Positions 5,129 through 21,792 of a stretch of DNA of 32,000 nt are shown here, piece by piece. This stretch comes from Allobaculum fili (GTDB lineage: Bacteria > Bacillota_I > Bacilli_A > Erysipelotrichales > Erysipelotrichaceae), in NCBI RefSeq assembly GCF_020969955.1, contig NZ_JAHDSX010000025.1, positions 1-32,000 of the forward strand. Reading direction: 5' to 3'. Positions within the stretch are counted from its first letter, which is position 1. The number at the start of each line of letters is the position of its first letter. The notes under the pieces are model-generated. The model did not search any database. It was not told the origin of the DNA and saw only the letters and a program-made list of their open reading frames with translations. The position numbers and the translations under genes were made by a program.

Positions 5129-5333
5129 TATTCAATACGACCTTGGCGACATTGTGGAAATGAAAAAAGAGCACCCCTGCCATCTTTCCAAAGAATGGAA
5201 AATCATTCGCATGGGCGCCGATATTCGAATCAAGTGCCAGGGCTGTCAGACCAGCGTTCTGATGCCGCGTTCCAAATTTGAGAAAAAGCTCAAGCGCGTC
5301 ATCCGGAAAGCGGATCAGAACAAGGAGGAATAG
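5121..5333 (+). CDS. DUF951-family small protein
   Basis: The 70-aa product reads YDLGDIVEMKKEHPC....W.I.R.GADIRIKCQGC, the DUF951 pattern. This family is characteristically found next to ychF in Bacillota. The gene overlaps the end of folD by 8 nt. Confidence 0.7.
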   Translation: MTDIQYDLGDIVEMKKEHPCHLSKEWKIIRMGADIRIKCQGCQTSVLMPRSKFEKKLKRVIRKADQNKEE

Positions 5334-5338
5334 AATCA

Positions 5339-6439
5339 ATGTCTTTAACTGCAGGAATTGTCGGACTGCCAAACGTAGGCAAGTCCACCCTGTTTAATGC
5401 CATCACCAACTCGCAGGCGGAGGCTGCCAACTATCCGTTTGCGACCATCTCGCCCAACGTCGGCGTCGTTGAAGTACCCGATCGCCGCGTAGACCGCCTG
5501 ACGGAACTGTTTCATCCGAAGAAAACGATTTATACGACCTTTGAATTTACCGATATTGCCGGTCTGGTCAAAGGCGCGTCCAAAGGCGAAGGACTGGGCA
5601 ACCAGTTTCTGGCGAACATCCGGAACACGGATGCGATCTGCCATGTCGTTCGCTGCTTTGACGATCCGAACATCACGCATGTGGAAAACTCAGTCGACCC
5701 GGTTCGTGATGCCGAAATTATCAATCTCGAACTGATCCTCGCCGATCTGTCGACGGCAGAAAACCGCATTGCCAAAGTTGAACGAAAGGCATCGAGCGGC
5801 GATAAGAGCGCCAAAGCGGAAATGAATCTGCTTTCCCGTCTTAAACCGCATCTGGAAGCCGGAAATCCGGCCCGCTCTCTGGAAATTACGGAAGACGAAG
5901 CGCCGATTCTGCACCAGTACGGTCTGCTGACTGTCAAACCGGTCATTTACGTAGCCAACATGGATGACGAAGGCATCGCCGATCCGTCGGCCAATCCGTA
6001 TTTCCAGGCACTGTCCAAAATGGCCGAAGCCGAAGGCGCGCGCATCGTTCCGATCTGCGCCCGTCTTGAAGAAGAACTTTCCAGTCTGGAACCGGAAGAA
6101 AAGGACGCGTTCCTCGAAGATCTCGGTCTTCCGCAGTCCGGTCTCGATCATCTGATTCAGACTGCGTACGCGACGCTCGATCTCTGCACGTTCCTGACTG
6201 CAGGCACCGACGAATGTCGTGCATGGACATTCAAGCGCGGCATGAAAGCGCCGGACTGCGCCGGCGTCATTCACACCGACTTCAAGCGCGGCTTTATCCG
6301 TGCCGAAGTGTACGCCTTTGATGACATCGATCGTCTCGAAAGCGAACAGGCGGTTAAGGAAGCCGGCAAGCTGCGCCTGGAAGGCAAGGACTATGTCGTT
6401 CAGGACGGCGACGTGATGCATTTCCGCTTCAACGTCTAA
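5339..6439 (+). CDS. ychF: redox-regulated ribosome-binding ATPase YchF
   Basis: The product has the G1 motif GIVGLPNVGKSTLFNA, then FTDIAGLVKGAS, and a C-terminal TGS-like end (GKDYVVQDGDVMHFRFNV). The length is 366 aa. Confidence 0.95.
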   Translation: MSLTAGIVGLPNVGKSTLFNAITNSQAEAANYPFATISPNVGVVEVPDRRVDRLTELFHPKKTIYTTFEFTDIAGLVKGASKGEGLGNQFLANIRNTDAICHVVRCFDDPNITHVENSVDPVRDAEIINLELILADLSTAENRIAKVERKASSGDKSAKAEMNLLSRLKPHLEAGNPARSLEITEDEAPILHQYGLLTVKPVIYVANMDDEGIADPSANPYFQALSKMAEAEGARIVPICARLEEELSSLEPEEKDAFLEDLGLPQSGLDHLIQTAYATLDLCTFLTAGTDECRAWTFKRGMKAPDCAGVIHTDFKRGFIRAEVYAFDDIDRLESEQAVKEAGKLRLEGKDYVVQDGDVMHFRFNV

Positions 6440-6478
6440 TCCGACAGGACGGTATTCCATTCCATCTGAAAACAATTT

Positions 6479-6510
6479 GACTCTCCGTCTCGATCGCGGA
6501 GAGTCTTTTT
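6479..6510 (+). terminator. intrinsic terminator after ychF
   Basis: A 9-bp stem pairs GACTCTCCG (6479-6487) with CGGAGAGTC (6497-6505), followed by TTTTT. Confidence 0.7.
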
Positions 6511-6687
6511 GAATTCTTACACTGTGCCCAAATCAAACCGGAATCCTTTTCTTTTGGATGGCGTTCTGTATGATGGGTATACGGTCCCAAAATGTATAGC
6601 CGCAAAAAGAATGCTTTTGCGAACTCCAATGGACCGAATTCGACGCAAATGACTTTGAAAGGCTCTGGCTTTGCGAAAGGAGAATTT

Positions 6688-7353
6688 ATGTTATCTGCCC
6701 TTCGAACATTCGATCTGCGCATGATTTCGATTTATCTGATTGCCGTTTTCCTTTCCATGACGCTTCATGAAATGGCGCATGGACTGGTCTCCTACTGGCT
6801 GGGGGATTCGCTGGCAAAATCGCGCGGACGAATTTCTTTAAACCCGTTCCACCATATCGACTGGATGGGTCTGCTCTGCCTGCTGCTCTTTGGTTTTGGA
6901 TGGGCCAAACCGGTACCGGTCGATCCATCCCGCTACAAGGATCCGAAAACCGGCATGATCTGGACCGCTTTTGCGGGTCCGATGACCAACTTCCTGCTTT
7001 CCTTTGTCTGCGTGTTCCTTTTTGAAGTGCTGGTTTATTTCACCGGCGGCTTCGTGAACACTGCCATCGGATCGTATCTGATCTCGCTTCTGTCCGCGAC
7101 CGCGGTGATGTCCATGGGATTTGGCGTCTTCAACCTGATTCCGATCCCGCCGCTGGACGGATCCCGCATTTTCTGGGCATTTTTGCCGGACCGAGAATAC
7201 TTCAAAGTCAATAATCCGCCTGCCTGGATGTCCCTGCTGTTTCTGGTTGTGATTTTCTCCGGCATTCTCGATGGACCGCTGGCCATGATGCGTTCCACCA
7301 TGATCGGCTGGATGGAAAGCGGAGCGCTCTGGCTGCTTTCTCCGTTTATTTAA
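6688..7353 (+). CDS. site-2 protease family (peptidase M50) membrane metalloprotease
   Basis: AAAGGAGA precedes ATG 6688, an internal start of ORF 6592..7353. HEMAHGL (HExxH) sits in the first TM segment. There are multiple hydrophobic segments, and NLIPIPPLDGSRI matches the family's conserved LDG motif. Confidence 0.8.
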   Translation: MLSALRTFDLRMISIYLIAVFLSMTLHEMAHGLVSYWLGDSLAKSRGRISLNPFHHIDWMGLLCLLLFGFGWAKPVPVDPSRYKDPKTGMIWTAFAGPMTNFLLSFVCVFLFEVLVYFTGGFVNTAIGSYLISLLSATAVMSMGFGVFNLIPIPPLDGSRIFWAFLPDREYFKVNNPPAWMSLLFLVVIFSGILDGPLAMMRSTMIGWMESGALWLLSPFI

Positions 7354-7517: not shown

Positions 7518-7730
7518 TCCAAAAAGGCGGGATCCATTATTCGTTTGCACGCTTCGAAAAGCCATCGCCTATAGAAAAACGAAAGGTACAATCCGGTATT
7601 GCAAGAATGAGCAGCGCTTGCATAAATTGATTGATTTTCAGAAGAATTGGACGATGCAGGGAAAGGCTACGGTACAAAAAAGACAATGACAGTCAAAAGA
7701 AAACGTGAGTGTCAAACCAGACGCTCAATT

Positions 7731-7774
7731 TTCCGTACCTGTTGCGCTTTAATTCCGTACCTGTTGCGCTTTAA
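7731..7774. repeat. perfect 22-bp tandem duplication TTCCGTACCTGTTGCGCTTTAA x2
   Basis: The unit at 7731-7752 is repeated exactly at 7753-7774. The repeat ends 33 nt upstream of ATG 7808. Confidence 0.9.
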
Positions 7775-7807: not shown

Positions 7808-8071
7808 ATGAAATACTGTGAGCACTGTCATGCTCCCATTTCCGATACGGCGCTGTTCTGCACCAGCTGCGGAACGCCTGTTTCCAAATCCTCTCCGGCC
7901 AGTCAGCCGGCAAAGTCGAATCCGGTCCAAAACGCATCGGCGCAGAGAGTTCAGCCTGGCAAAACTGTTCAGCCGGCAAAAAATGCCGGATATCCTCAGA
8001 ATGCCCGGGCGGTATCCAGTACGCCTTATGCGCAGAACGCGCAGCCCGTCCAGAATGCGCAGAACGGATAG
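7808..8071 (+). CDS. zinc-ribbon domain protein with a Q/N/A-rich tail; N-terminal part of a gene split by an in-frame TAG
   Basis: GAAGGAAA precedes ATG 7808. The CxxC...CxxC arrangement (CEHCHAPISDTALFCTSCG) indicates a zinc ribbon. A low-complexity linker follows. The frame ends at TAG 8069-8071. Confidence 0.65.
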   Translation: MKYCEHCHAPISDTALFCTSCGTPVSKSSPASQPAKSNPVQNASAQRVQPGKTVQPAKNAGYPQNARAVSSTPYAQNAQPVQNAQNG

Positions 8072-8134
8072 TTTTCGAATGCGGTAAAGACAAACGCCCA
8101 GACGCAGTCCGTTTCTTCCGCTGCCTCTTCCGCC

Positions 8135-8800
8135 ATGCAGACCGTGCAGGCGGTCGTCGGTTCGGTTCAGTCGTTTGTGGATAATGCCTCGGCGGCTTAC
8201 CGGCCGGTCGCTCAGCGCGCAGTGGAAAATGCGGAAGCGCCAAACCGGGACAAGACGTGTCATGGCGTAATTCTTTCGGACGGGGAAATCGTAATCCGGG
8301 ACTACGTATGTGCCGATATCCGCTCCCCGCGCTGCATGGGATATCTTACCGTAACGAATAAGCGCGTCCTCTTTAACGGAGAAGGCAGCGGAAGCCGGAT
8401 CGCTCAGCAGGCCTGGATTGACGGCGTCACCGGCGTTACCGCCTATTACGGGCGCGACATTCAGATTTCGATGGTCGTTGGCGGAGCACTTCTTCTTCTC
8501 TGTTCCCCCTTTGCAGCGATGGTCAATCCGCTCGTACTGTTTCTGTTTATGGGGCTGGGGATCTTACTGATCATTGTCGGCCTGATGCAAAAATGCTTCA
8601 AGCTGAGCATTCATTCCAGCAACTACACCGGCAACAGTATTTCGTTTGGGAGCGGGCCGACCAACATGCTCGGCAATGCGGCGCTGCTTTCGCTGACCGG
8701 CGGCCCGACTGTCGACACCAACAAGATGATGGATGAGCTCGGCGCTCTGATTCAGGATCTTCAGACGCAGGGCGATCTGGCCATCAAAAAATGGAAATAG
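8135..8800 (+). CDS. PH/GRAM-like domain protein with a two-helix TM hairpin; C-terminal part of the same split frame
   Basis: This ORF is in the same frame as 7808..8071, and all 21 codons from 8072 to 8134 are sense codons. GYLTVTNKRVLF is a bacterial PH/GRAM-like signature. The two hydrophobic helices are VVGGALLLLCSPFAAMV and LVLFLFMGLGILLIIVGL. No Shine-Dalgarno sequence precedes ATG 8135. Confidence 0.6.
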   Translation: MQTVQAVVGSVQSFVDNASAAYRPVAQRAVENAEAPNRDKTCHGVILSDGEIVIRDYVCADIRSPRCMGYLTVTNKRVLFNGEGSGSRIAQQAWIDGVTGVTAYYGRDIQISMVVGGALLLLCSPFAAMVNPLVLFLFMGLGILLIIVGLMQKCFKLSIHSSNYTGNSISFGSGPTNMLGNAALLSLTGGPTVDTNKMMDELGALIQDLQTQGDLAIKKWK

Positions 8801-8823: not shown

Positions 8824-8864
8824 ACAAAGACAGGCATCGGCTTTCGCTGCCTGTCTTTGTTTTG
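8824..8864 (+). terminator. intrinsic terminator
   Basis: A 12-bp perfect stem pairs ACAAAGACAGGC (8824-8835) with GCCTGTCTTTGT (8849-8860), followed by TTT. Confidence 0.7.
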
Positions 8865-8878
8865 GAAAGGAAATCGAA

Positions 8879-9178
8879 ATGATTGATATTAATGTAAATC
8901 GTCTCGCAAAACGCATTCAGGAAGAGTGTCCGTACCTCGATGCGCAGGCGGCAATGTATTACGCCAGAGACTTTCAGCGCACCTTTGAAGACGGCTCGAA
9001 ACCCGCACTGGAGCGATGGATGAATCATGAGCCGTTTGAGACGGATGAAAAATATACCGTTCCTGTGATTCAAAAAATTCACAGAGCCGGAGGAATTGTG
9101 GAAGCATTCCGTCTTTACGATCTGTGGAAAAAAGATCCCGTCCTGGGCGAACGGCTCATCTGGCAGGGACCGCGCTAA
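8879..9178 (+). CDS. hypothetical 99-aa protein, first gene of the B-C-D unit
   Basis: AAAGGAAA precedes ATG 8879. No family was recognised. The gene ends 15 nt before the next gene on the same strand. Confidence 0.55.
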   Translation: MIDINVNRLAKRIQEECPYLDAQAAMYYARDFQRTFEDGSKPALERWMNHEPFETDEKYTVPVIQKIHRAGGIVEAFRLYDLWKKDPVLGERLIWQGPR

Positions 9179-9193: not shown

Positions 9194-11380
9194 ATGAACT
9201 TACGACAGATGCGCTTTGCGCTTATGAGCGATGAAAAGCTCTATCAGTCTTTTGCTTCTTCGAACTGGAACCGGATGAGCGTCGAAAACCGGAAGGCAGC
9301 GCTGCAGGAGCTGGGCAATCGCGTCGCAGACGAATACGGGATTGAACGCCGGCCGATGTGGTTTGAACCCATGAGCGGAGGACGCTTCGGATCTTTTGAT
9401 GAGAATGAAAATGTCGTATGCCTCAACCGCTACCTTGTGGAAGAAGGCCGGCAGTATATGGCGGAAAACGGGCAGCTGTATTACTGCGATCGTACGGATG
9501 CGCCGGCCGAACTGGTGAATACGGTTTATCACGAATACTATCACGCCTATCAGCGGGATGCGATCGACGGAAAAGTGACGCATCCGGATCCCATGGAAGT
9601 CAAAGTCTGGGAAAGCAATTTTAAACGGGATGCGGGCAATCAGCTCGTGAACTACTACAGCAATCAAGACAAAGTGGATCCGCGCTATAACGTCCAGTCC
9701 GGGGAGCGAACAGCCGACCGCAAAGGAGAAGAAGGCGTTCGAAAAGTTTTTGAATCCAACGAAAGAACTCTCGGCAAAGACCAGATGTATGAAGAGTATA
9801 AAAAATCGCATGCCTGTGATTCATATTCCAGACACCTTCAGGATGCGATCAGCCAGTTACAGGATCCGAACATCGAAGAAAATCTCGATAAAGAGATGCT
9901 CATGAAATACTGCGATGATCATGGAATCGACTATAAAGCAGAGGACAGCTATAAGGATGTCTGCAATCGGATTCGGCAGGCAGAGCATCCAGAACTTGGT
10001 CCAGCTAAGCCCGCTTCCGAAAAATCTCTGCTGACCCCGGAACAGGAGCGGCTTAAGCAGTACATGGATGATCATGGATACAGTCCGGAAAACCAGACGG
10101 AGTATAAGCGGGATCCGGAATGGCAGCGGCTGCATCAGGCAGTTTATGGAGAACGCGAAGGCATAAATAACTTGCCGCCGGATCCCTCTTTCCACAAAGA
10201 AGCGGAAAAGGCCGAGCAGGAAGACCAGACGATCAACAGAGAACTGAACACGGAGGTTTTACCAAAGAAAGCGGAAGAAGCTGCCGAAAGCGAAGACCAG
10301 GATCAGCAGGAAGGCGAAAGCAAAACAGCGGAAGAGACCGAGGACGAATCTGAGGCTGAAAGCGAAGGTCAGAGCGAGCAGGAAGGCGAAAGCGAAGCGG
10401 TCGAAGAGACCGAGGACAAATCCGCAGCCGAAAGCGAAGATCAGACTGAACAGGAAGATCAGGTCGAGTCCGATGAACTGAACATGGACGACTCCCCCGA
10501 AGAAAGTGAAGACGAAACTGAGCAGGAAGATCAGAGTGAAAGGTCTGAAGAGACCGAGGACGAATCTGAGGCTGAAAGCGAAGATCAGAGCGAACAGGAA
10601 GAGGAAAGCGAAGCGGTCGAAGAGACCGAGGACAAATCCGCAGCCGAAAGCGAAGATCAGACTGAACAGGAAGATCAGGTCGAATCCGATGAACTGAACA
10701 TGGACGACTCTCCCGAAGAAAGTGAAGACCAGAGCGAACAGGAAGATCAGGTCGAGTCCGATGAACTGAACATGGACGATTCTCCCGAGGAAAGTGAAGA
10801 CGAGACTGAACAGGAGGATCAGGTCGAATCCGACGAATTGAACATGGACGACTCTCCCGAAGAAAGTGAAGACCAGAGCGAACAGGAAGATCAGGTCGAG
10901 CCCGATGAACTGAACATGGACGATTCTCCCGAGGAAAGTGAAGACGAGACGGAACAGGAGGATCAGGTCGAATCCGATGAACTGAACATGGACGACTCTC
11001 CCGAAGAAAGTGAAGACCAGAGCGAACAGGAAGATCAGGTCGAGTCCGATGAACTGAACATGGACGATTCTCCCGAGGAAAGTGAAGACGAGACGGAACA
11101 GGAGGATCAGGTCGAATCCGACGAATTGAACATGGACGACTCTTACGACGAAAACGAAGACCAGAGAGAACAGGAAGATCGGAACCATTCGGATGATGTA
11201 AACATGGATGAATCGGCAGATCAGGAAGAAGAAACATCTGAAAACGAAGAACAGGCCCAGTCCGAAGATCAGAGTCTGTCCGATGAGCCCAGCATGGAGG
11301 ACGGTTCTTTGCCATCAGACAGCGGGGAGAGTTCCTCTAAAGAGGAGGAAGAAGACGAACAGAAGGGCATATCCTACTGA
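9194..11380 (+). CDS. HExxH (zincin-like) N-domain protein with a ~390-aa polyacidic tandem-repeat tail
   Basis: AAGGAG precedes ATG 9194. HEYYH with a following AYQ lies at nt 9530-9553 (residues 113-120). An internal duplicated motif (K.Y.DDHG...YK.D) occurs near residues 240-300. From about residue 336 to the end the protein is almost only D/E/S/Q/T, built from 24-aa units (DELNMDDSPEESED[ET/QS]EQEDQVES). Confidence 0.85.
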   Translation: MNLRQMRFALMSDEKLYQSFASSNWNRMSVENRKAALQELGNRVADEYGIERRPMWFEPMSGGRFGSFDENENVVCLNRYLVEEGRQYMAENGQLYYCDRTDAPAELVNTVYHEYYHAYQRDAIDGKVTHPDPMEVKVWESNFKRDAGNQLVNYYSNQDKVDPRYNVQSGERTADRKGEEGVRKVFESNERTLGKDQMYEEYKKSHACDSYSRHLQDAISQLQDPNIEENLDKEMLMKYCDDHGIDYKAEDSYKDVCNRIRQAEHPELGPAKPASEKSLLTPEQERLKQYMDDHGYSPENQTEYKRDPEWQRLHQAVYGEREGINNLPPDPSFHKEAEKAEQEDQTINRELNTEVLPKKAEEAAESEDQDQQEGESKTAEETEDESEAESEGQSEQEGESEAVEETEDKSAAESEDQTEQEDQVESDELNMDDSPEESEDETEQEDQSERSEETEDESEAESEDQSEQEEESEAVEETEDKSAAESEDQTEQEDQVESDELNMDDSPEESEDQSEQEDQVESDELNMDDSPEESEDETEQEDQVESDELNMDDSPEESEDQSEQEDQVEPDELNMDDSPEESEDETEQEDQVESDELNMDDSPEESEDQSEQEDQVESDELNMDDSPEESEDETEQEDQVESDELNMDDSYDENEDQREQEDRNHSDDVNMDESADQEEETSENEEQAQSEDQSLSDEPSMEDGSLPSDSGESSSKEEEEDEQKGISY
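10331..11191 (+). repeat. nested in-frame tandem repeats: 216 bp x2, then 72 bp x7 (alternating A/B types, i.e. a 144-bp super-unit)
   Basis: GAAGAGACCGAGGAC... starts at 10331 and again at 10547, a period of 216 bp. GA[TC]GAA[CT]TGAACATGGACGA starts at 10472, 10688, 10760, 10832, 10904, 10976, 11048 and 11120, plus a degenerate copy at 11192. Copies 10688-10759 and 10976-11047 are identical. Copies 10904-10975 and 11048-11119 are also identical. Confidence 0.9.
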
Positions 11381-11436
11381 TTCCTCCCAGCTAGTCCAAT
11401 GCTTCAGCCTCAATGTATGGAAGAAAGGAAAAGAAA

Positions 11437-12747
11437 ATGGAATACAACGAACAGATTCTCAGCGGTGAATATCTTCATGATGATCTGACTTACGTAGAAC
11501 AGACGGCAAAATTCGGCCTTCCCGGAACGCTTCGAACCGGGAACAGTGTACTGCTCTGTCCGGGTGAGCAGATGCTGTCACGCCATCTGCTTCTGCTTGG
11601 CGGAATTGGAAGCGGCAAATCCAACTGCTTCAATCACCTGATCCGCAATGTCCGTGCCGGACTGACCGGACAGGATGTGCTGATCATTTTTGATACCAAA
11701 GGCGACTATTACGATGAGTTTTACTGTCCGGGCGATGTCGTCATCAGCAACGATGCCCGGGCTACCGGCGGCGCTGGTTTTGACTGCTGGAACGTCTTTA
11801 ACGAAGTCATGATCGATGACCGCGTCGAAGAAAACGTCTACGAAATTGCCGGTACGCTTTTTTATGACAAGATTCACAACAGCTCGCAGCCGTTTTTCCC
11901 AAATGCGGCGAAAGACCTGTTTACGGCGCTGATGCTGCACATGAACCGCTCCGAGAAAATGGCGGCGCATCACAATAACAAGGCGCTCCGTTCCATGCTG
12001 GATACGTTCTCTCCGGAAGCCATGAAGAAAATTCTTCTTTCCTATCCCGATCTGAAGTCGATGAGTACGTATATTGATGATCCGAAGTCCGGACAGACAA
12101 TGGGCGTCGTCTCGGAACTGCAGCAGGCAGTGCGGGAAATTCTGATCGGCAATTTTAAGCAGAAGGGAACGCTCTCCATGCGGGAACTGGTTCGCCAGAA
12201 AGGCGGCCGTGTCATTTTCATCGAATATGACACGGGCATCGGCAATCTGCTTACACCGATTTATAAGCTGCTGGTCGATCTGGCAATCAAGGAAGCGCTC
12301 TGCCGCAAGAGCAACGAAGGAAACGTTTATTTCATGCTCGATGAATTCCGGCTGCTTCCGCATCTCGAACACATTGACGACGGCGTCAATTTTGGACGAA
12401 GCCTGGGCGCCAAGTTCGCGATCGGAATTCAGAACGTGGATCAGATTTCGGCAGCGTATGGCGAAAACCTGGCGCGAAGCATTCTTTCCGGTTTCGCGAC
12501 AACGTTCGCTTTTCGGGTCAACGATTCCAATTCCCGCGGCTACATCAAGGATCTTTATGGAATGAATCTGCGTTCGGCAAGCTTCCTGTCCAATATCACG
12601 TCAAGAGGACTGGTCGAGCAGATTCGGGAAACGACGGTCGTTGAAGACGTGGATATCACCCGGCTACAGATTGGCGAAGCCATTATCAGTACGCTGGGCA
12701 TGCCGCCTTTCCGCTTCCGGTTTGATGAGTTTTTCTCGTCGCGCTGA
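11437..12747 (+). CDS. VirD4/TraG/TraD-like (type IV coupling protein-like) P-loop ATPase lacking an N-terminal TM anchor
   Basis: AAAGGAA at 11424-11430 precedes ATG 11437, an internal start of ORF 11413..12747. Walker A is LLLLGGIGSGKS (nt 11599-11622). The T4CP-like blocks are FDTKGDYYDEF, CWNVFNEV, QPFFPNAAKDLFTALMLHM, Walker B YFMLDEFRLLP, and GAKFAIGIQNVDQISAAYGENLARSILSGFATTFAFRVND. There is no hydrophobic N-terminal segment. Confidence 0.8.
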   Translation: MEYNEQILSGEYLHDDLTYVEQTAKFGLPGTLRTGNSVLLCPGEQMLSRHLLLLGGIGSGKSNCFNHLIRNVRAGLTGQDVLIIFDTKGDYYDEFYCPGDVVISNDARATGGAGFDCWNVFNEVMIDDRVEENVYEIAGTLFYDKIHNSSQPFFPNAAKDLFTALMLHMNRSEKMAAHHNNKALRSMLDTFSPEAMKKILLSYPDLKSMSTYIDDPKSGQTMGVVSELQQAVREILIGNFKQKGTLSMRELVRQKGGRVIFIEYDTGIGNLLTPIYKLLVDLAIKEALCRKSNEGNVYFMLDEFRLLPHLEHIDDGVNFGRSLGAKFAIGIQNVDQISAAYGENLARSILSGFATTFAFRVNDSNSRGYIKDLYGMNLRSASFLSNITSRGLVEQIRETTVVEDVDITRLQIGEAIISTLGMPPFRFRFDEFFSSR

Positions 12748-18465: not shown

Positions 18466-18515
18466 TTCAGAAGTTCTTCCTTATACGATTGAAGCGATAC
18501 GATTTATGCAGTCTG

Positions 18516-18542
18516 GGACCGGAGAAATCCGGTCCTTTTTTC
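18516..18542 (+). terminator. intrinsic terminator
   Basis: GGACCGGA (18516-18523), loop GAAA, TCCGGTCC (18528-18535), followed by TTTTTTT. Confidence 0.75.
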
Positions 18543-18659
18543 ACGCATGCGCTTCTGGGGACCTGAAAGGACGGCCGGGTATGAGGCGCAGGCAAGGCAA
18601 ACCCTGCATACGGCCGCTATACTGAAACCGAAAAATACCGCAAAGAAAGAAGGAAAACT

Positions 18660-19955
18660 ATGGCTGAATCCACCAATCCAAATCTCAGTAAGCAGATGAT
18701 TTATTCCGTATTCGTACGCAACCATTCCAGAGAAGGAACCTTTGCGAAAGTCGAAGAAGATCTCGACCGCATCCGCGATCTGGGAACCGATATTCTCTGG
18801 CTCATGCCGATTCACCCGACGGGTAAAGTCGAGCGCAAAGGCGAGGACGGAAGTCCCTACGCGATTGCCGACTACTGGAAAATCGATCCGAAAATGGGAA
18901 CGGAAGAGGATCTGAAACATCTGGTGCAGAGCGCGCATGAAAAAGGCATGAAAGTCATTCTCGATATTGTCTTCAACCACACTTCGCCCGATTCGAAAAT
19001 GGTCCAGGAATATCCCGAATGGTTTTACCGCGATGAAGACGGCAAGCCGTATCCGATGTTCCGGGAATGGAGCGATATCGTCGATCTCGACTTTTCGAGC
19101 AAAGCGCTTCAGGAGGAACTCATTCGAATTCTGAAGCATTACGCTTCGATCGTGGACGGCTTTCGCTGCGATGTCGCCAGCCGCGTACCGGCCAGTTTCT
19201 GGAAAAAAGCCAGAGCGGCCTGCGACACAGTAAAGCCGGATTTGTTCTGGCTGGCGGAAAGCTGTCATCTTCCCTTTATTAAGTTCTGCCGTGACAATGG
19301 CCGCGTCGGCGAAAGCGATTCGGCGCTGTATGAAGCGTTCGATGTGCTCTATGACTACGACGCCTTCCCGTACTGCGAGAAAATTTTTGAAGACGGCAAG
19401 CCGATGGAAGAATGGGTCGACGCGCTGATCCGTCAGGATGCCGAGCTTCCACAAAACGCCATCAAGCTGCGCTATCTGGAAAACCACGATACCGACCGGA
19501 TCAGTCAGTACGTAAAGGACTGGCCGCTCTGGAAAAACTGGACGGCGCTGCAGTTTACGCTCAAAGGCATGCCGCTCGTTTACCATGGTCAGGAAATTCG
19601 AACAAGTCATCGTCCGGACATTTTTACTGCCGATCCGATCGCATGGAAAGAAGACGATGCGGCAGCAGACTGGATTCGAACGCTGGCGCATCTGCACAAA
19701 ACGCTGTTCTCGGCGCAGCCGGTCATCGACTATGAAATCGATGAAACACATCCTGTTCTGCGCATCAGCCGGGACGGTTATGCGGGTGCCTTCCTGCTCG
19801 CAAAAACCGAGCCGGATGCTCTGATTTCGACGAACCTGAAAGACGGCGTATGGTACAACCTCTTTACCGGAACCGACTTTGAAGTGGCCGATCACCATAT
19901 GAAAGCCGCGGATTTCCCGGTTCTCGTACAGATGGAAGACGAAGTCAAAGACTGA
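18660..19955 (+). CDS. cytoplasmic glycoside hydrolase family 13 (alpha-amylase family) enzyme
   Basis: GH13 conserved regions are present: ILDIVFNHTS, GFRCDVAS (nucleophile Asp), FWLAES (acid/base Glu) and YLENHD. There is no signal peptide. Confidence 0.85.
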   Translation: MAESTNPNLSKQMIYSVFVRNHSREGTFAKVEEDLDRIRDLGTDILWLMPIHPTGKVERKGEDGSPYAIADYWKIDPKMGTEEDLKHLVQSAHEKGMKVILDIVFNHTSPDSKMVQEYPEWFYRDEDGKPYPMFREWSDIVDLDFSSKALQEELIRILKHYASIVDGFRCDVASRVPASFWKKARAACDTVKPDLFWLAESCHLPFIKFCRDNGRVGESDSALYEAFDVLYDYDAFPYCEKIFEDGKPMEEWVDALIRQDAELPQNAIKLRYLENHDTDRISQYVKDWPLWKNWTALQFTLKGMPLVYHGQEIRTSHRPDIFTADPIAWKEDDAAADWIRTLAHLHKTLFSAQPVIDYEIDETHPVLRISRDGYAGAFLLAKTEPDALISTNLKDGVWYNLFTGTDFEVADHHMKAADFPVLVQMEDEVKD

Positions 19956-20082
19956 CCTGAGGAAAAGCAGAAGCAAATCGCAGAGCGTGAAAACGGGAAA
20001 CGCACTGAAAACAAGTCCTGCAATCCCGCTTTTGCACACAATCCGTATACGCATCCGAATAAAACGTTAAGAAACAAAAAAA

Positions 20083-20137
20083 CGCTCGTCGGCCGCAGGG
20101 GACTGTATGAAAATACAGACAGCTGCGCCGACGGGCG
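20083..20137. terminator. long hairpin between convergent genes (bidirectional terminator)
   Basis: CGCTCGTCGGC (20083-20093) pairs with GCCGACGGGCG (20127-20137), with one G-U pair. An inner CTGTAT/ATACAG pairing extends it. An A-run lies upstream and GTTTTCTT downstream. Confidence 0.55.
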
Positions 20138-20183
20138 GTTTTCTTATGGCTTTGTGTGTTATGCATTCGATCGCAGAAAAAGG

Positions 20184-20672
20184 TTACGATCTGCGCCGCT
20201 TTTTGCGGATGCGTCTGGAGAGATCCTGATCCGCACTGCTGGAGCCGGCGCACTGCGCCTGTTCAAGCATCTTAAAGAAGGACTCGATATCGCTGGCGAT
20301 TTCCTTCTTCTTGGACGGCCTCTCCAGCGGCAGCAGAACGATCGATCCCGTACTGGTGTCGAGGAAAAAGTCATCGTCCGTATCGCTTAAAGCGAGCGGA
20401 AAATACGTATCGGGAATGAGATTGCCCATCGAGTACAAGTCGAGAATATGATCGGCTGACATATTTCCGGTAAATAAAGGAATGAAATGATCGACGACAT
20501 ACGTATGGCCGTCTACCTCCAGAGGGGTATGGAACATACTCATACCGTTGCACGTGCGGTAGAAGTCCTTGAGGGCGCCGGGAAGACACAGATTATAGCG
20601 GTCTTCAAATTCCAGGAGCATTTCTTCCGAGAAAGGTAAAGGGTCCTGGCCGGGGGTGAGGAATGAATACAT
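20184..20672 (-). CDS. SMI1/KNR4 (SUKH-1) family immunity-like protein
   Basis: AAAGGAGG precedes the ATG whose complement is at 20670-20672, an internal start of ORF 20184..20747. LEFEDRYNLCLPGALKDFYRTCNG matches the family pattern (LP..yk.F....NG). The C-terminal tail is basic. Confidence 0.72.
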   Translation of the reverse strand: MYSFLTPGQDPLPFSEEMLLEFEDRYNLCLPGALKDFYRTCNGMSMFHTPLEVDGHTYVVDHFIPLFTGNMSADHILDLYSMGNLIPDTYFPLALSDTDDDFFLDTSTGSIVLLPLERPSKKKEIASDIESFFKMLEQAQCAGSSSADQDLSRRIRKKRRRS

Positions 20673-20890
20673 GAGGTATACACCTCCTTTTCTCAAGTAT
20701 AGGCGCCATAGGGACCTCTCATTTCGTCGCCGGAGCGAAATTATCAAACCTTAATGGGAAAAAAGAATATAAACAAAGGCCGCCTAAAGATCCAAAACCA
20801 TTATGGAGAAAATGAATAGAATGTAACAATTTACATTTCCAGCTCAAAACCGCGCGCAAACGGTCAGAGCGGATCGCGACGGCAGACCAA

Positions 20891-20919
20891 AGAAAAAGCA
20901 GGCGAAAGCATCCGCCTGC
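20891..20919 (-). terminator. intrinsic terminator after the lipoprotein gene
   Basis: The minus strand reads GCAGGCG-GATGCTTT-CGCCTGC followed by TTTTTCTTT. Plus-strand stems are at 20898-20904 and 20913-20919. Confidence 0.55.
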
Positions 20920-20943
20920 AAATAGAAAAACTGAGTCCTGGTT

Positions 20944-21663
20944 TTACTGGACGGGCCAGGAAGCGAGATCCGAAGGGAAGTCGATTTGAACGGTTCCGCC
21001 GACCTGATCGATTTCGATATCGGCCTGGAAGGTAAGCGGCGTGCTGGCCACGTCGATGTCATACGTTCCCTTGAGGTCGATCGACAGTTCCCTGATCGTC
21101 TTGTTTTCGATCTCGACTTCAAGGACGGTTTTGTCTACGTCGACCGCGCCATAGGAATCCAGAAATTTGGCGACTTCCGAAGGTTTGAGCACAAAGGTGT
21201 ATTCATTGCCCTCCACTTTTACGGATTCGAAGAGGTTTTCCCGCTCGCTGCGGGAAAGTTCCAGAAACGGGTTGGGCATATGGAAACCGTCTTCTTCGTT
21301 AATACCGAGATTTGCGGCGAGAGAAGACGATTTGGTTCCGGCATAATTAAGATACGTGTGACCGTCACGAATATAAAAATCGGCGTCCACGCTCTGTCCG
21401 GCCACGCTGCCTTTTCCGAGAAAAGCCAGTTCAGCCGGCTGGCTTTGATACGCAGCGTTGAAATCCAGATCGACGCCCAGAAGATTCATATCCCCGTGGG
21501 CTTTGAGCGAATCGGCTTCACAAAGGCGGTTCCAGGATTCGAAAAACAGGTTTACAGCCTCCTTTTTCTGGTCAGCATTGCTGTTGGAACAGCCGGCAGC
21601 CAGAGAAGAAAAGGCGAACAGCGTACAGAGCGCTGTAGTGCGAAATGCGTGTTTTGAGAGCAT
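20944..21663 (-). CDS. lipoprotein of unknown function
   Basis: AAAGGAGAA precedes the ATG at 21663, an internal start of ORF 20944..21708. The signal peptide has a lipobox (LFAFSSLAAGCSNS). The remainder looks beta-rich and no family was recognised with confidence. Confidence 0.7.
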   Translation of the reverse strand: MLSKHAFRTTALCTLFAFSSLAAGCSNSNADQKKEAVNLFFESWNRLCEADSLKAHGDMNLLGVDLDFNAAYQSQPAELAFLGKGSVAGQSVDADFYIRDGHTYLNYAGTKSSSLAANLGINEEDGFHMPNPFLELSRSERENLFESVKVEGNEYTFVLKPSEVAKFLDSYGAVDVDKTVLEVEIENKTIRELSIDLKGTYDIDVASTPLTFQADIEIDQVGGTVQIDFPSDLASWPVQ

Positions 21664-21792
21664 GCGTTCTCCTTTCAAAAGAAATTGGACCGGTCTGCAT
21701 CGACTCAAATCAGAAGGAAGAGCAGAGCGGCAGGGTTATTAAGCGGGAAACAGGCGGCAAAGAATGTCCGCCTGACAAAATGCAGAAAAGCA

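Follow-up and report, generated by a model that had tools for sequence, protein, structure and literature searches.

The 728-residue protein encoded at positions 9194-11380 of the window (the whole 32-kb stretch of DNA analysed here) may be one of the cargoes or effectors of a cassette not described before. This cassette pairs a T4CP-like ATPase that has no transmembrane domain with a PH-domain membrane protein, and the C-terminal tip of the 728-residue protein would serve as its client signal. We give this reading a probability of about one half. Domain signatures, synteny and the enrichment of the tip beside the ATPase were all observed. Literature searches found no published description of the cassette, and the papers on Menshen, on Bub/Bil and the 2006 papers on ubiquitin antecedents do not mention it. 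The features of the locus are as follows.

7808-8800, + strand: membrane partner, with a Zn-ribbon, a Q/N/A-rich linker, a PH/GRAM-like domain, two TM helices and a conserved C-terminal helix (ELGALIQDLQ..GDLAIKKWK)
8825-8863, + strand: terminator-like hairpin after the membrane-partner gene, read directly, with a 12-bp perfect stem (CAAAGACAGGCA / TGCCTGTCTTTG), an 11-nt loop and then TTTT
8879-9178, + strand: small helical partner of the zincin head, 99 aa, with its stop 15 nt before the zincin start
9194-11380, + strand: gene for the zincin-like protein, an ORF of 728 aa
9194-9979, + strand: gluzincin-like metallopeptidase head, aa 1-262, with HEYYH at nt 9530-9544 and a putative third ligand, E171, at 9704-9706 in QSGERTA (ExxA)
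9980-10198, + strand: linker with a ~40-aa motif (LTPEQERLKQYMDDHGYSPENQTEYKRDPEWQRLHQ) that is seen 2-4 times in other polyacidic proteins
10199-11365, + strand: polyacidic low-complexity tail of 72-nt (24-aa) repeats (array 10283-11180), with 48% D/E and 3% K/R over aa 336-728
11366-11380, + strand: tip G-I-S-Y and the stop codon, fitting [GS]-[YMILFHA]-[GSH]-[YMF]-COOH after an acidic run
11413-12747, + strand: T4CP-like (TrwB/VirD4/TraD-type) ATPase, 444 aa, with Walker A GGIGSGKS at ~11599-11622 and Walker B DE at 12340-12345

The tip was strongly enriched next to the ATPase. The window protein ends ...EEEEDEQKGISY, which fits the motif [GS]-Φ-[GSH]-[YMF]. We counted this motif in 80 metagenomic loci that carry the ATPase clade at 51-68% identity: it was present in 31 of the 60 genes immediately upstream of the ATPase, compared to 15 of 1292 other ORFs (odds ratio 91, p = 4e-35), and these 15 'background' cases were themselves further genes of the same cassettes. 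The tip-bearing upstream genes had 23 distinct C-termini on at least eight unrelated head families, and the median D/E fraction over the last 60 residues was 0.23 for upstream neighbours, compared to 0.12 for the background. Heads found at this position include Tox-GHH (65 bits, cut-off 25) and Endonuclea_NS_2 (48.5 bits, cut-off 27). As in polymorphic toxins, unrelated toxin domains thus share one conserved C-terminal element at the same genomic position. In several loci there are two or three genes for tip-bearing proteins, some of which have 104-137 aa. Only about half of the upstream neighbours match the strict tip, and the Lachnospiraceae zincins end ...GMDI. That the tip is common to unrelated, partly toxin-like proteins beside the ATPase points to an undescribed protein-handling system, probably for export, in gut and soil bacteria.

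The ATPase has the nucleotide-binding and all-alpha domains by which T4CPs are recognised. It matched the Pfam families TrwB_AAD_bind (4.1e-44, 151 bits, cut-off 20.5), T4SS-DNA_transf (1.1e-20, 74 bits) and TraG-D_C (2.2e-12, 47 bits), and among solved structures TrwB (1e9r) is the closest. The clade shows no variation at G63-K69 and D310-E311. We found no hydrophobic N-terminal segment that could form an N-terminal transmembrane domain, and the size of the protein is close to that of the soluble TrwBΔN70 (437 aa); its relatives have 432-501 aa. With the classical TraD proteins of plasmids it shares only ~25% identity. Haloarchaeal relatives of the ATPase share 29% identity. The ATPase adjoins the zincin in 7 out of 8 loci, and two loci (L011, L014) carry the small partner and the zincin without an adjacent ATPase.

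The membrane partner accompanies the ATPase closely. A PH-TM membrane protein lay within 5 kb of the ATPase in all 27 metagenomic loci with enough context, and was also present in Paenibacillus and Curtobacterium megaplasmids. Homologues of the membrane partner adjoin the ATPase in L005 (36% identity), in Paenibacillus (L016, 35% identity) and in Curtobacterium (L017, hhalign 80%, E 1.5e-5). In Pfam, the membrane partner matched Zn_Ribbon_1 (6.9e-9) and, weakly, GRAM. An in-frame TAG at 8069-8071 splits its gene in the window into ORFs 7808-8071 and 8135-8800, which are in the same frame and separated by this one stop. Other Allobaculum strains have CAG in place of TAG and an intact protein of 334 aa. 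With this nonsense codon, the system may be impaired in the strain analysed here. The hairpin downstream of the gene was missing from the terminator scan because the scan permits loops of 3-8 nt only.

The locus lies in the core chromosome, with YchF and a site-2 protease on one side and a Liv transporter on the other; the window holds IspF, FolD, YchF, S2P, Liv, TrkAH and RpoB. It contains no relaxase, VirB4, VirB6 or VirB8 gene, and the related loci that we inspected have neither a relaxase nor T4SS channel genes. A tblastn search with the zincin head against 72,556 plasmids and 50,697 phage records gave no match. On these three grounds, we rejected a classical conjugative or mobilisable element.

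A long ORF across a repeat of this kind is, taken alone, no proof of coding, and the 309-360-aa ORFs on the reverse strand over the repeat were judged to be artefacts. Near-identical Allobaculum alleles have 512, 560, 584 and 728 aa, so that their lengths differ in multiples of 24 aa, and all of them share the C-terminus ...EEEEDEQKG[IM]SY. A similar C-terminus was found again in distant relatives of the zincin-like protein. The 24-aa length steps, the constant C-terminus and its recurrence in distant relatives argue that translation continues through the whole frame. Tandem Repeats Finder identified a period of 72 nt with 10.4 copies at 10430-11180, and related 72-nt units start at 10283. A count over the 393 tail residues gave 187 D/E and 12 K/R, with a net charge of -175, and the motif DELNMDDS occurs eight times.

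An earlier, sequence-only reading of this DNA had reported HEYYHAYQ at nt 9530-9553 (aa 113-120) together with its flanking peptides, a 24-aa unit with 13 D/E and no basic residue, and a remainder that was essentially polyacidic. All of these were found in the translated ORF. The same reading had described residues 1-335 as one non-repetitive domain. It really has two parts: a zincin-like domain of ~250 aa is followed by a distinct region at aa ~270-330 that carries the ~40-aa motif. The latter was matched separately, in several stretches, by P0026, P0043, P0095 and others, and P0043 and P0095 adjoin DUF87/HerA-FtsK ATPases. Pfam Ish1 (HeH-like) gave a sub-threshold match at aa 285-307 (E 8.6e-4).

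Conservation and modelling support the assignment of the head as a gluzincin-type metallopeptidase-like domain, and as a member of an uncharacterised family. There are 278 representative relatives at E <= 1e-3. In 51 relatives at 22-35% identity, H113, E114, H117, Y165 and E171 were invariant and A174 was conserved in at least 90%; the window protein carries ERTA at the ExxA position (E171/A174). The AF2 model of the head (pLDDT 94.6, pTM 0.91) places H113, E114 and H117 of the HExxH on one predicted helix (103-124), and E171/A174 in the following long helix (169-193). The only fold matches were zincins (minigluzincins, IrrE/PprI, SprT/SPRTN and M48), and these were weak. In the PDB the top matches were jannalysin 4jix (E 0.02, prob 0.99), PprI 8sln, selecase, SPRTN 6mdx and BepA, with none at E <= 0.001 and with low TM-scores. 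BFVD gave the same picture, and overall the matches had E >= 0.004 and a TM-score <= 0.35 on the query. The zincin proposed in the sequence-only reading is thus supported by the invariant HExxH and E171, by predicted helices arranged as expected and by weak fold matches to zincins only.

No curated family accounted for the head. Residues 1-335 matched nothing significant in Pfam, NCBIfam, PADLOC or PHROGs, and searches of the PDB by sequence, with the single sequence or with a 51-sequence profile, gave chance matches only. Among the 51 members, weak profile matches were to SprT-like in four and to Peptidase_M91 and Tox-MPTase3/4 in single members. We rejected SprT-like (PF10263), to which the window protein has no match and its four relatives only weak ones (best E 3.5e-6, below the curated cut-off). 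We also rejected DUF4157 (PF13699), which the sequence-only reading had suggested: the window protein has no match at E <= 1, none of the 51 members matched at E <= 0.1, and nothing is common beyond the short HExxHxxQ string. Minigluzincins, IrrE/ImmA and SprT-like zincins, the best fold matches, resemble the head in having the HExxH on an active-site helix, a Glu on a later helix (ExxA) and an N-terminal subdomain of beta-sheet and helices. Unlike them, the head has its own conserved residues (W25, Q38, N142, Y165 and Q168) and no profile match for the window protein.

The small partner was encoded directly upstream of the zincin gene, as a ~100-aa gene, in 8 out of 8 independent loci, including the two without an adjacent ATPase. 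None of its 96 relatives has an informative name or a Pfam domain, and it had no significant match in Pfam, NCBIfam, PADLOC or PHROGs. AF2 predicted a six-helix bundle (pLDDT 88), for which a fold search found no PDB match and no known immunity fold. The cassettes of Paenibacillus and Curtobacterium have genes of 184-210 aa, to which homology of the small partner was rejected (hhalign probability <1%), and we therefore assign the small partner to the zincin head rather than to the ATPase machine. It is probably an inhibitor, immunity protein or chaperone of the head.

What does the tail do? The sequence-only reading had offered a DNA mimic, a decoy or a handle recognised by the ATPase, and had held that a tail highly variable or absent in orthologues without functional consequence would count against its proposal. 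Tail length is indeed highly variable (8 to 665 aa in the zincin family), but the acidic character and the tip are conserved: the tip is retained among relatives of 22-40% identity, and the remaining tail is not. Long polyacidic tails on zincin heads also occur in L021, L025, L026 and L029. Next to the Paenibacillus ATPase is a 620-aa polyacidic protein without a zincin, and the Curtobacterium ATPase has as its neighbour a protein of 576 aa that lacks annotation and bears an EPEP... tail. The tail travels with the ATPase rather than with the zincin head. An acidic C-terminus and tip are common to unrelated proteins beside the ATPase, and from this enrichment the handle is the favoured of the three ideas. 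Our best reading is that the tail is a recognition handle for the ATPase machine, repeat-expanded here, rather than a DNA mimic.

We propose that the tip and the acidic stretch before it form the signal by which the ATPase would recognise its clients, and that the PH-domain membrane protein would tether the ATPase at the membrane. The head would travel with its own small helical partner, and the likeliest outcome is that clients are moved across or into the membrane. The tail is probably disordered as well as acidic, its conserved element being an acidic run that ends small-hydrophobic-small-aromatic. The 393-aa Allobaculum array would then be a lineage-specific expansion of the acidic part, in which the eight internal DELNMDDS motifs may add avidity for a hexameric ATPase. 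Taken further, and only tentatively, the ATPase and its PH partner may give monoderm bacteria a new and minimal pathway for protein export or delivery, one that descends from a conjugative coupling protein and needs no T4SS channel. Acidic tails with Y-x-Y-G-Φ-G-Φ-type tips would address all of its substrates, namely zincin proteases, small helical proteins and nucleases of the GHH and non-specific kinds, and the motor might thread the polyanionic tail in place of single-stranded DNA.

Among type IV coupling proteins and their substrates, the closest known case is that of the antibacterial X-T4SS effectors (X-Tfe), whose C-terminal XVIPCD interacts with VirD4, and the Legionella Dot/Icm effectors, which have Glu-rich C-terminal signals; the coupling complex of Legionella also recognises such glutamate-rich stretches on its effectors. 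Like the cassette, both have a TrwB/VirD4-type ATPase, an acidic signal, a small cognate partner gene beside the toxin-like head, and clients whose enzymatic or toxic heads vary and whose C-terminal recognition element is common. In contrast to these systems, the cassette has no T4SS channel genes and no relaxase nearby, its ATPase lacks the TM domain and always has a PH-domain membrane protein as partner instead, its signal is a short acidic-aromatic tip compared to the ~120-aa XVIPCD, and its hosts are monoderm gut and soil bacteria.

Type VIIb secretion, with EssC as its FtsK/SpoIIIE ATPase, small helical partners and LXG polymorphic toxins, is likewise found in monoderm hosts. Its ATPase too belongs to the FtsK-HerA superfamily, each locus has several clients, some of them helical proteins of ~100 aa, nuclease toxin domains are interchangeable, and small helper or immunity genes lie beside the toxins. 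However, the cassette ATPase is of the T4CP family with a single ATPase domain, and none of the other type VIIb core genes EssA, EssB, EsaA and YukD was seen near the cassette. The conserved element in the cassette is C-terminal, with the toxin head N-terminal or central; LXG toxins have the reverse order.

T4CPs without a transmembrane domain are known to pair with small membrane proteins, as in TraJ/TraI of pIP501, where the gene of the ATPase lies beside that of a small membrane protein thought to tether it (PMC7434980). TraJ differs in that its gene is one of 15 in a complete conjugation operon, which includes a relaxase, and the cassette pair stands alone with protein clients. The C-terminal domains of T4CPs are themselves D/E-rich, and the acidic tail of DotL helps to receive effectors (PMC7434980).

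Several observations stand against our reading, among them the two loci without an adjacent ATPase, the upstream neighbours outside the strict tip pattern and the nonsense codon in the membrane partner. Apart from the two-TM PH protein, nothing in the cassette is an obvious channel, which leaves the crossing route unexplained, and the defence-island settings of some loci fit an intracellular immune role equally well. In such an abortive-infection-type module, which we consider somewhat unlikely, the membrane-tethered ATPase would sense or pump invading DNA, and the tails and tips would dock interchangeable effectors (the zincin, nucleases) as pseudo-substrates that real DNA frees or activates, with the small protein keeping the zincin inactive. 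Several loci do lie in islands of defence-type genes (TIR, DarT, Card1, type III CRISPR), those of Lachnospiraceae being among TIR_2, NADAR-DarT1, NB-ARC, Card1 and type III CRISPR genes, and the cassette recurs beside E1/E2/JAB genes and once beside ClpP. Defence systems typically keep one ATPase and exchange effectors on it, gene decay is frequent (nonsense and frameshift alleles), and the ATPase has weak PADLOC matches to mad8 and HerA. Yet no cassette component convincingly matches a PADLOC system model, and the Allobaculum, L005 and L013 cassettes lie among housekeeping or polysaccharide genes, outside defence islands. Two or three tip-bearing proteins per locus resemble a set of secretion substrates more than a single effector, and Tox-GHH is known above all from exported polymorphic toxins.

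It is quite improbable that the tail is a neutral, fast-evolving acidic low-complexity extension, a 'bristle' that aids solubility or serves as a spacer and is not specifically tied to the ATPase, and that the zincin and small protein are a self-contained toxin-antitoxin or protease-inhibitor pair merely beside it. Such a tail could vary as widely in length as this one does, even between near-identical strains, could tolerate the frameshift seen in the tail of allele P0004, and would fit the two loci in which the pair occurs without the ATPase. It does not account for the ~90-fold enrichment of the tip on unrelated heads, for a tip that is conserved where the rest of the tail is not, or for the polyacidic proteins without a zincin that lie beside this ATPase and PH-TM pair in both Bacilli and Actinobacteria.

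We hold it very doubtful that the disordered C-terminus is a ubiquitin-like conjugation substrate, activated by E1/E2 and trimmed by JAB as is the CD-NTase C-terminus in type II CBASS. Loci of Synergistaceae (L006), Oscillospiraceae (L007) and Lachnospiraceae (L001, L003) do have genes for E1 (ThiF), E2-like and JAB proteins next to the cassette, and many family C-termini have a Gly 3-4 residues from the end (...DDGGIE, ...DDGMDI). Against this, the window has no E1, E2 or JAB gene, nor do L005, L013, L015 or the L021-type loci, and many tips have no Gly (...NYSY, ...YTYSY).

Barely credible is an Ocr/ArdA-like DNA mimic or decoy that inhibits restriction enzymes or DNA-binding proteins generally: the tail shares with Ocr and ArdA a very high negative charge density, its neighbour is of a DNA-translocating ATPase family and disordered D/E tracts can compete with DNA on DNA-binding proteins, but known mimics are folded with a fixed charge pattern, whereas this tail is repetitive, low-complexity, length-variable and chromosomal without plasmid or phage relatives, had no Pfam, NCBIfam or PHROG match to ArdA or Ocr (and none in Pfam to any other family), keeps the same partners in orthologous cassettes when just 8-30 residues long, and has as its conserved part a tip common to nuclease-headed proteins.

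At present, Allobaculum, Blautia, Lachnoclostridium, Mediterraneibacter and many metagenomes carry the zincin head, its 100-aa partner and the PH-TM protein only as 'hypothetical proteins' that lack a Pfam domain, and these families would gain an annotation. With the tip motif, clients of the system could readily be listed for any genome. Coupling proteins, known as substrate receptors of conjugation and effector T4SSs, would gain an orphan role: a widespread clade that has lost the membrane domain, always pairs with a PH-domain membrane protein and lies beside toxin-like proteins with a common C-terminal address tag would represent either a new way for Gram-positive bacteria of gut and soil to export proteins or antagonise others, or an immune module of a new kind.

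The conserved feature of this system is a C-terminal stretch, acidic and capped by a short aromatic/Gly tip, that is carried on interchangeable heads beside one pair of proteins, an ATPase and a PH-TM membrane protein. In the window it belongs to a cassette set in core chromosome, with IspF, FolD, DUF951, YchF and a site-2 protease upstream and a Liv ABC transporter, TrkA/TrkH and RpoB downstream. No tRNA or conjugation genes were found in the 32-kb window. The cassette comprises:
7808-8800, forward strand: Zn-ribbon, PH-like, two-TM protein (PH-TM), with an in-frame TAG at 8069-8071
8879-9178, forward strand: 99-residue helical protein
9194-11380, forward strand: zincin with polyacidic tail
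11413-12747, forward strand: TrwB/VirD4-type ATPase of 444 residues, with Walker A and B motifs and an all-alpha domain; no transmembrane segment was found in it

The sequence-only reading had placed HEYYHAYQ (aa 113-120, nt 9530-9553) in the 728-residue product of ORF 9194-11380 (forward strand) and a polyacidic tail after it, and both were borne out. The tail (aa 336-728) contains 187 D/E and 12 K/R residues (net charge -175), and eight exact copies of DELNMDDS. Tandem Repeats Finder assigned 10430-11180 to 10.4 copies of a 72-nt unit; related units begin at 10283. The length of an ORF across such a GA-rich repeat proves little about coding by itself, and low-complexity DNA accounts for two artefactual ORFs on the strand opposite the acidic repeat:
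10233-11315, reverse strand: 360-residue ORF
10259-11188, reverse strand: 309-residue ORF

The window reading frame is supported because near-identical Allobaculum alleles of the zincin (512, 560, 584 and 728 residues) differ by multiples of 24 residues and share the end ...EEEEDEQKG[IM]SY, and because distant relatives also retain an acidic tail with a similar C-terminus. The window protein ends in ...EEEEDEQKGISY, which matches the tip pattern [GS]-[YMILFHA]-[GSH]-[YMF]-COOH. Some alleles are frameshifted, through either real decay or assembly errors: in one relative (P0004) a change of frame makes the tail K/R-rich, in Allobaculum sp. Allo2 (P0007; 2.73-Mb contig) the zincin ends prematurely near residue 168, and at one compared locus (L014, 661-1680) it is split into pieces of 60 and 255 residues.

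The TAG in the PH-TM gene divides it into ORFs of 87 and 221 residues; another Allobaculum assembly (98.9% DNA identity) has CAG (Gln) at this site and an intact 334-residue product. As the Curtobacterium homologues lack the Zn ribbon, the 221-residue product might still contain the PH/TM core, provided that it is made. Taken with the zincin and tail frameshifts in other strains, this nonsense codon suggests that the system is dispensable and may be inactive in this strain. A 12-bp hairpin followed by TTTT lies 3' of the gene. Just 5' of the gene, after a terminator-like hairpin (7706-7727), a perfect 22-nt tandem duplication (TTCCGTACCTGTTGCGCTTTAA twice, 7731-7774) may represent a regulatory site or the scar of an insertion. 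Elsewhere in the window, a SUKH-1/SMI1-KNR4 immunity-type protein (20184-20747, reverse strand; Pfam 1e-11) is flanked by unannotatable ORFs of 516 and 254 residues; this region (18504-21708, reverse strand) could be a separate toxin-immunity locus.

No curated match to residues 1-335 was found in Pfam, NCBIfam, PADLOC, PHROGs or PDB sequences, and a word-indexed search of 5.8 billion proteins returned only Allobaculum alleles and one protein at 33% identity. An exhaustive HMMER search with residues 1-250 gave 278 representative relatives. In an alignment of 51 head sequences (22-35% identity to the window protein), H113, E114, H117, Y165 and E171 were invariant, and W25, Q38, T110, N142, Q168 and A174 nearly so. 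This combination, an HExxH followed by a Glu within ExxA, is the gluzincin signature. An AF2 model using this alignment (pLDDT 94.6, pTM 0.91) had a β-sheet (aa 55-99), an HExxH helix (103-124) and a Glu helix (169-193). Its top Foldseek matches were zincins only, all weak (E ≥ 0.004): minigluzincins (jannalysin, selecase, abylysin), PprI/IrrE, SPRTN, M48 peptidases, and phage IrrE-like and SprT-like proteins. A few head relatives weakly matched SprT-like, Peptidase_M91 or Tox-MPTase3/4, and none matched DUF4157, the family that had been proposed. The invariant HExxH and E171, the confident model and the zincin-only fold matches support the original zincin assignment, so the head is predicted to be zincin-like and is a member of no curated family.

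Residues ~270-330 form a separate motif of ~40 residues that recurs in other polyacidic proteins, which adjoin DUF87/HerA-FtsK ATPases (loci L019, 5298-10979, and L020, 2-4103). As L019 lies between serine recombinases, this version is on a mobile element. Of these motif-bearing proteins, P0043 has a large non-acidic C-terminal region without a Pfam match and P0095 has the zincin at its C-terminus.

In its genomic distribution the acidic tail accompanies the ATPase and not the zincin head. Among plasmid-borne ATPases, those closest to that of the window (38-39% identity; classical TraD, ~25%) belong to two megaplasmids that are non-mobilisable, one from Paenibacillus and one from Curtobacterium, in both of which a PH-TM homologue lies beside the ATPase. 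The Paenibacillus cassette encodes a 620-residue polyacidic protein (39% D/E, 1% K/R) and that of Curtobacterium (plasmid pS16) a 576-residue one with an EPEPEP... tail (5272-7002), both without a zincin. RefSeq misses the latter gene and annotates a nonsense reverse-strand ORF (5560-6834).

Among eight independent contexts, including Allobaculum, three Lachnospiraceae types, and Synergistaceae and Oscillospiraceae MAGs, the small gene directly preceded the zincin in all eight and the ATPase lay beside it in seven. Two further loci (L013, L015) were consistent with this order; at L014, with its frameshifted zincin, no ATPase adjoined. The small protein has 96 relatives and was modelled as a six-helix bundle (pLDDT 88), for which a fold search found no known relative. 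Ubiquitin-like conjugation genes, encoding E1 (ThiF), E2-like proteins and JAB peptidases, adjoin the cassette in three separate lineages:
13106-15576 of L001/L003 (Lachnospiraceae)
1864-8317 of L006 (Synergistaceae)
1646-4493 of L007 (Oscillospiraceae)

The E1 of L001/L003 has, by eye, an N-terminal JAMM-like HxHx7SxxD motif, and many zincin C-termini have a Gly 3-4 residues from the end. A Lachnospiraceae-type locus (L012, 12608-14723) has a second T4CP-like ATPase (510 residues) directly followed by a ClpP protease gene, and a ClpP fragment adjoins the small gene of L014.

The tip was tested on 80 metagenomic loci, from human gut and sediment among numerous other samples, with ATPases 51-68% identical to that of the window. 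Where the flanks were long enough, the PH-TM protein lay within 5 kb of the ATPase (27 of 27 loci) and was frequently a tandem pair of paralogues; a zincin head was present in 16 of 51 loci, always directly upstream of the ATPase. The median D/E fraction of the last 60 residues was 0.23 for upstream neighbours of the ATPase, compared to 0.12 for other ORFs. The tip itself occurred in 31 of 60 upstream neighbours and 15 of 1292 other ORFs (odds ratio 91, p = 4e-35); these 15 are additional genes of the same cassettes, such as 104-137-residue proteins ending ...EDYYYGYGM. Typical upstream neighbours ended in ...EDEDEEYTYSY, ...EEDENYSY, ...SYDYGMGY, ...DDYCYGIGM, ...EVDEGIGY or ...KNGISM. Tip-bearing proteins showed 23 distinct C-termini and at least eight unrelated families of head, two of them the recognised toxin domains Tox-GHH (65 bits; cut-off 25) and Endonuclea_NS_2 (48.5 bits; cut-off 27). 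Zincin heads had long polyacidic tails in several loci (proteins of 518-743 residues), and in many cassettes the tail was only a few dozen residues.

What role would such a tip have? The signatures, the synteny and the enrichment are direct observations, and they are best explained by the tip serving as an address tag read by the ATPase and membrane-protein machine. This corresponds to the earlier idea of a translocation handle recognised by the ATPase; that the tip docks on the ATPase and not on the PH-TM protein is our inference. Export would be the outcome for tip-bearing clients, with the 99-residue protein a putative inhibitor, immunity protein or chaperone of the zincin. An intracellular immune role keeps some plausibility, as the cassette has no obvious channel, repeatedly adjoins E1/E2/JAB or ClpP genes and, in Lachnospiraceae, occurs in defence-type islands. 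However, we prefer export because of the toxin-type heads, the several tip-bearing proteins per locus and the obligatory membrane partner. The least supported reading, that the tail is a DNA mimic, was not borne out, as a short tail is enough, the long one does not resemble a folded mimic and no link to mobile elements was found. In a related reading that keeps some plausibility, a motor whose usual substrate is ssDNA may act on a polyanionic peptide in the same manner.

Precedents exist for the address-tag reading. The XVIPCD domain binds VirD4, the Legionella coupling complex recognises Glu-rich signals on effectors, and T7SS ATPases recognise the C-termini of their substrates. The C-terminal domains of coupling proteins are rich in D/E, and in DotL the acidic tail participates in receiving effectors (PMC7434980). 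Coupling proteins without a transmembrane domain cooperate with a small membrane protein, as do TraJ/TraI of pIP501 (PMC7434980), which the present ATPase and its membrane partner resemble.

The zincin and the T4CP ATPase are individually known kinds of parts. No description was found, in the literature or in defence, phage and family libraries, of the combination seen here: a T4CP lacking TM segments, together with a PH-TM partner and diverse clients that share an acidic-aromatic C-terminal tip. We class the cassette as a variant of T4CP-based substrate recruitment, and consider a genuinely new export pathway rather unlikely. The L005 and L013 cassettes (L013, 9001-14765) lie amid ATP-grasp, CapK-like, gamma-glutamyl-hydrolase-type (Peptidase_C26), GDPD and glycosyltransferase genes, and L007 has ATP-grasp and transglutaminase genes downstream; the products of these neighbouring genes could in principle modify the acidic tails.
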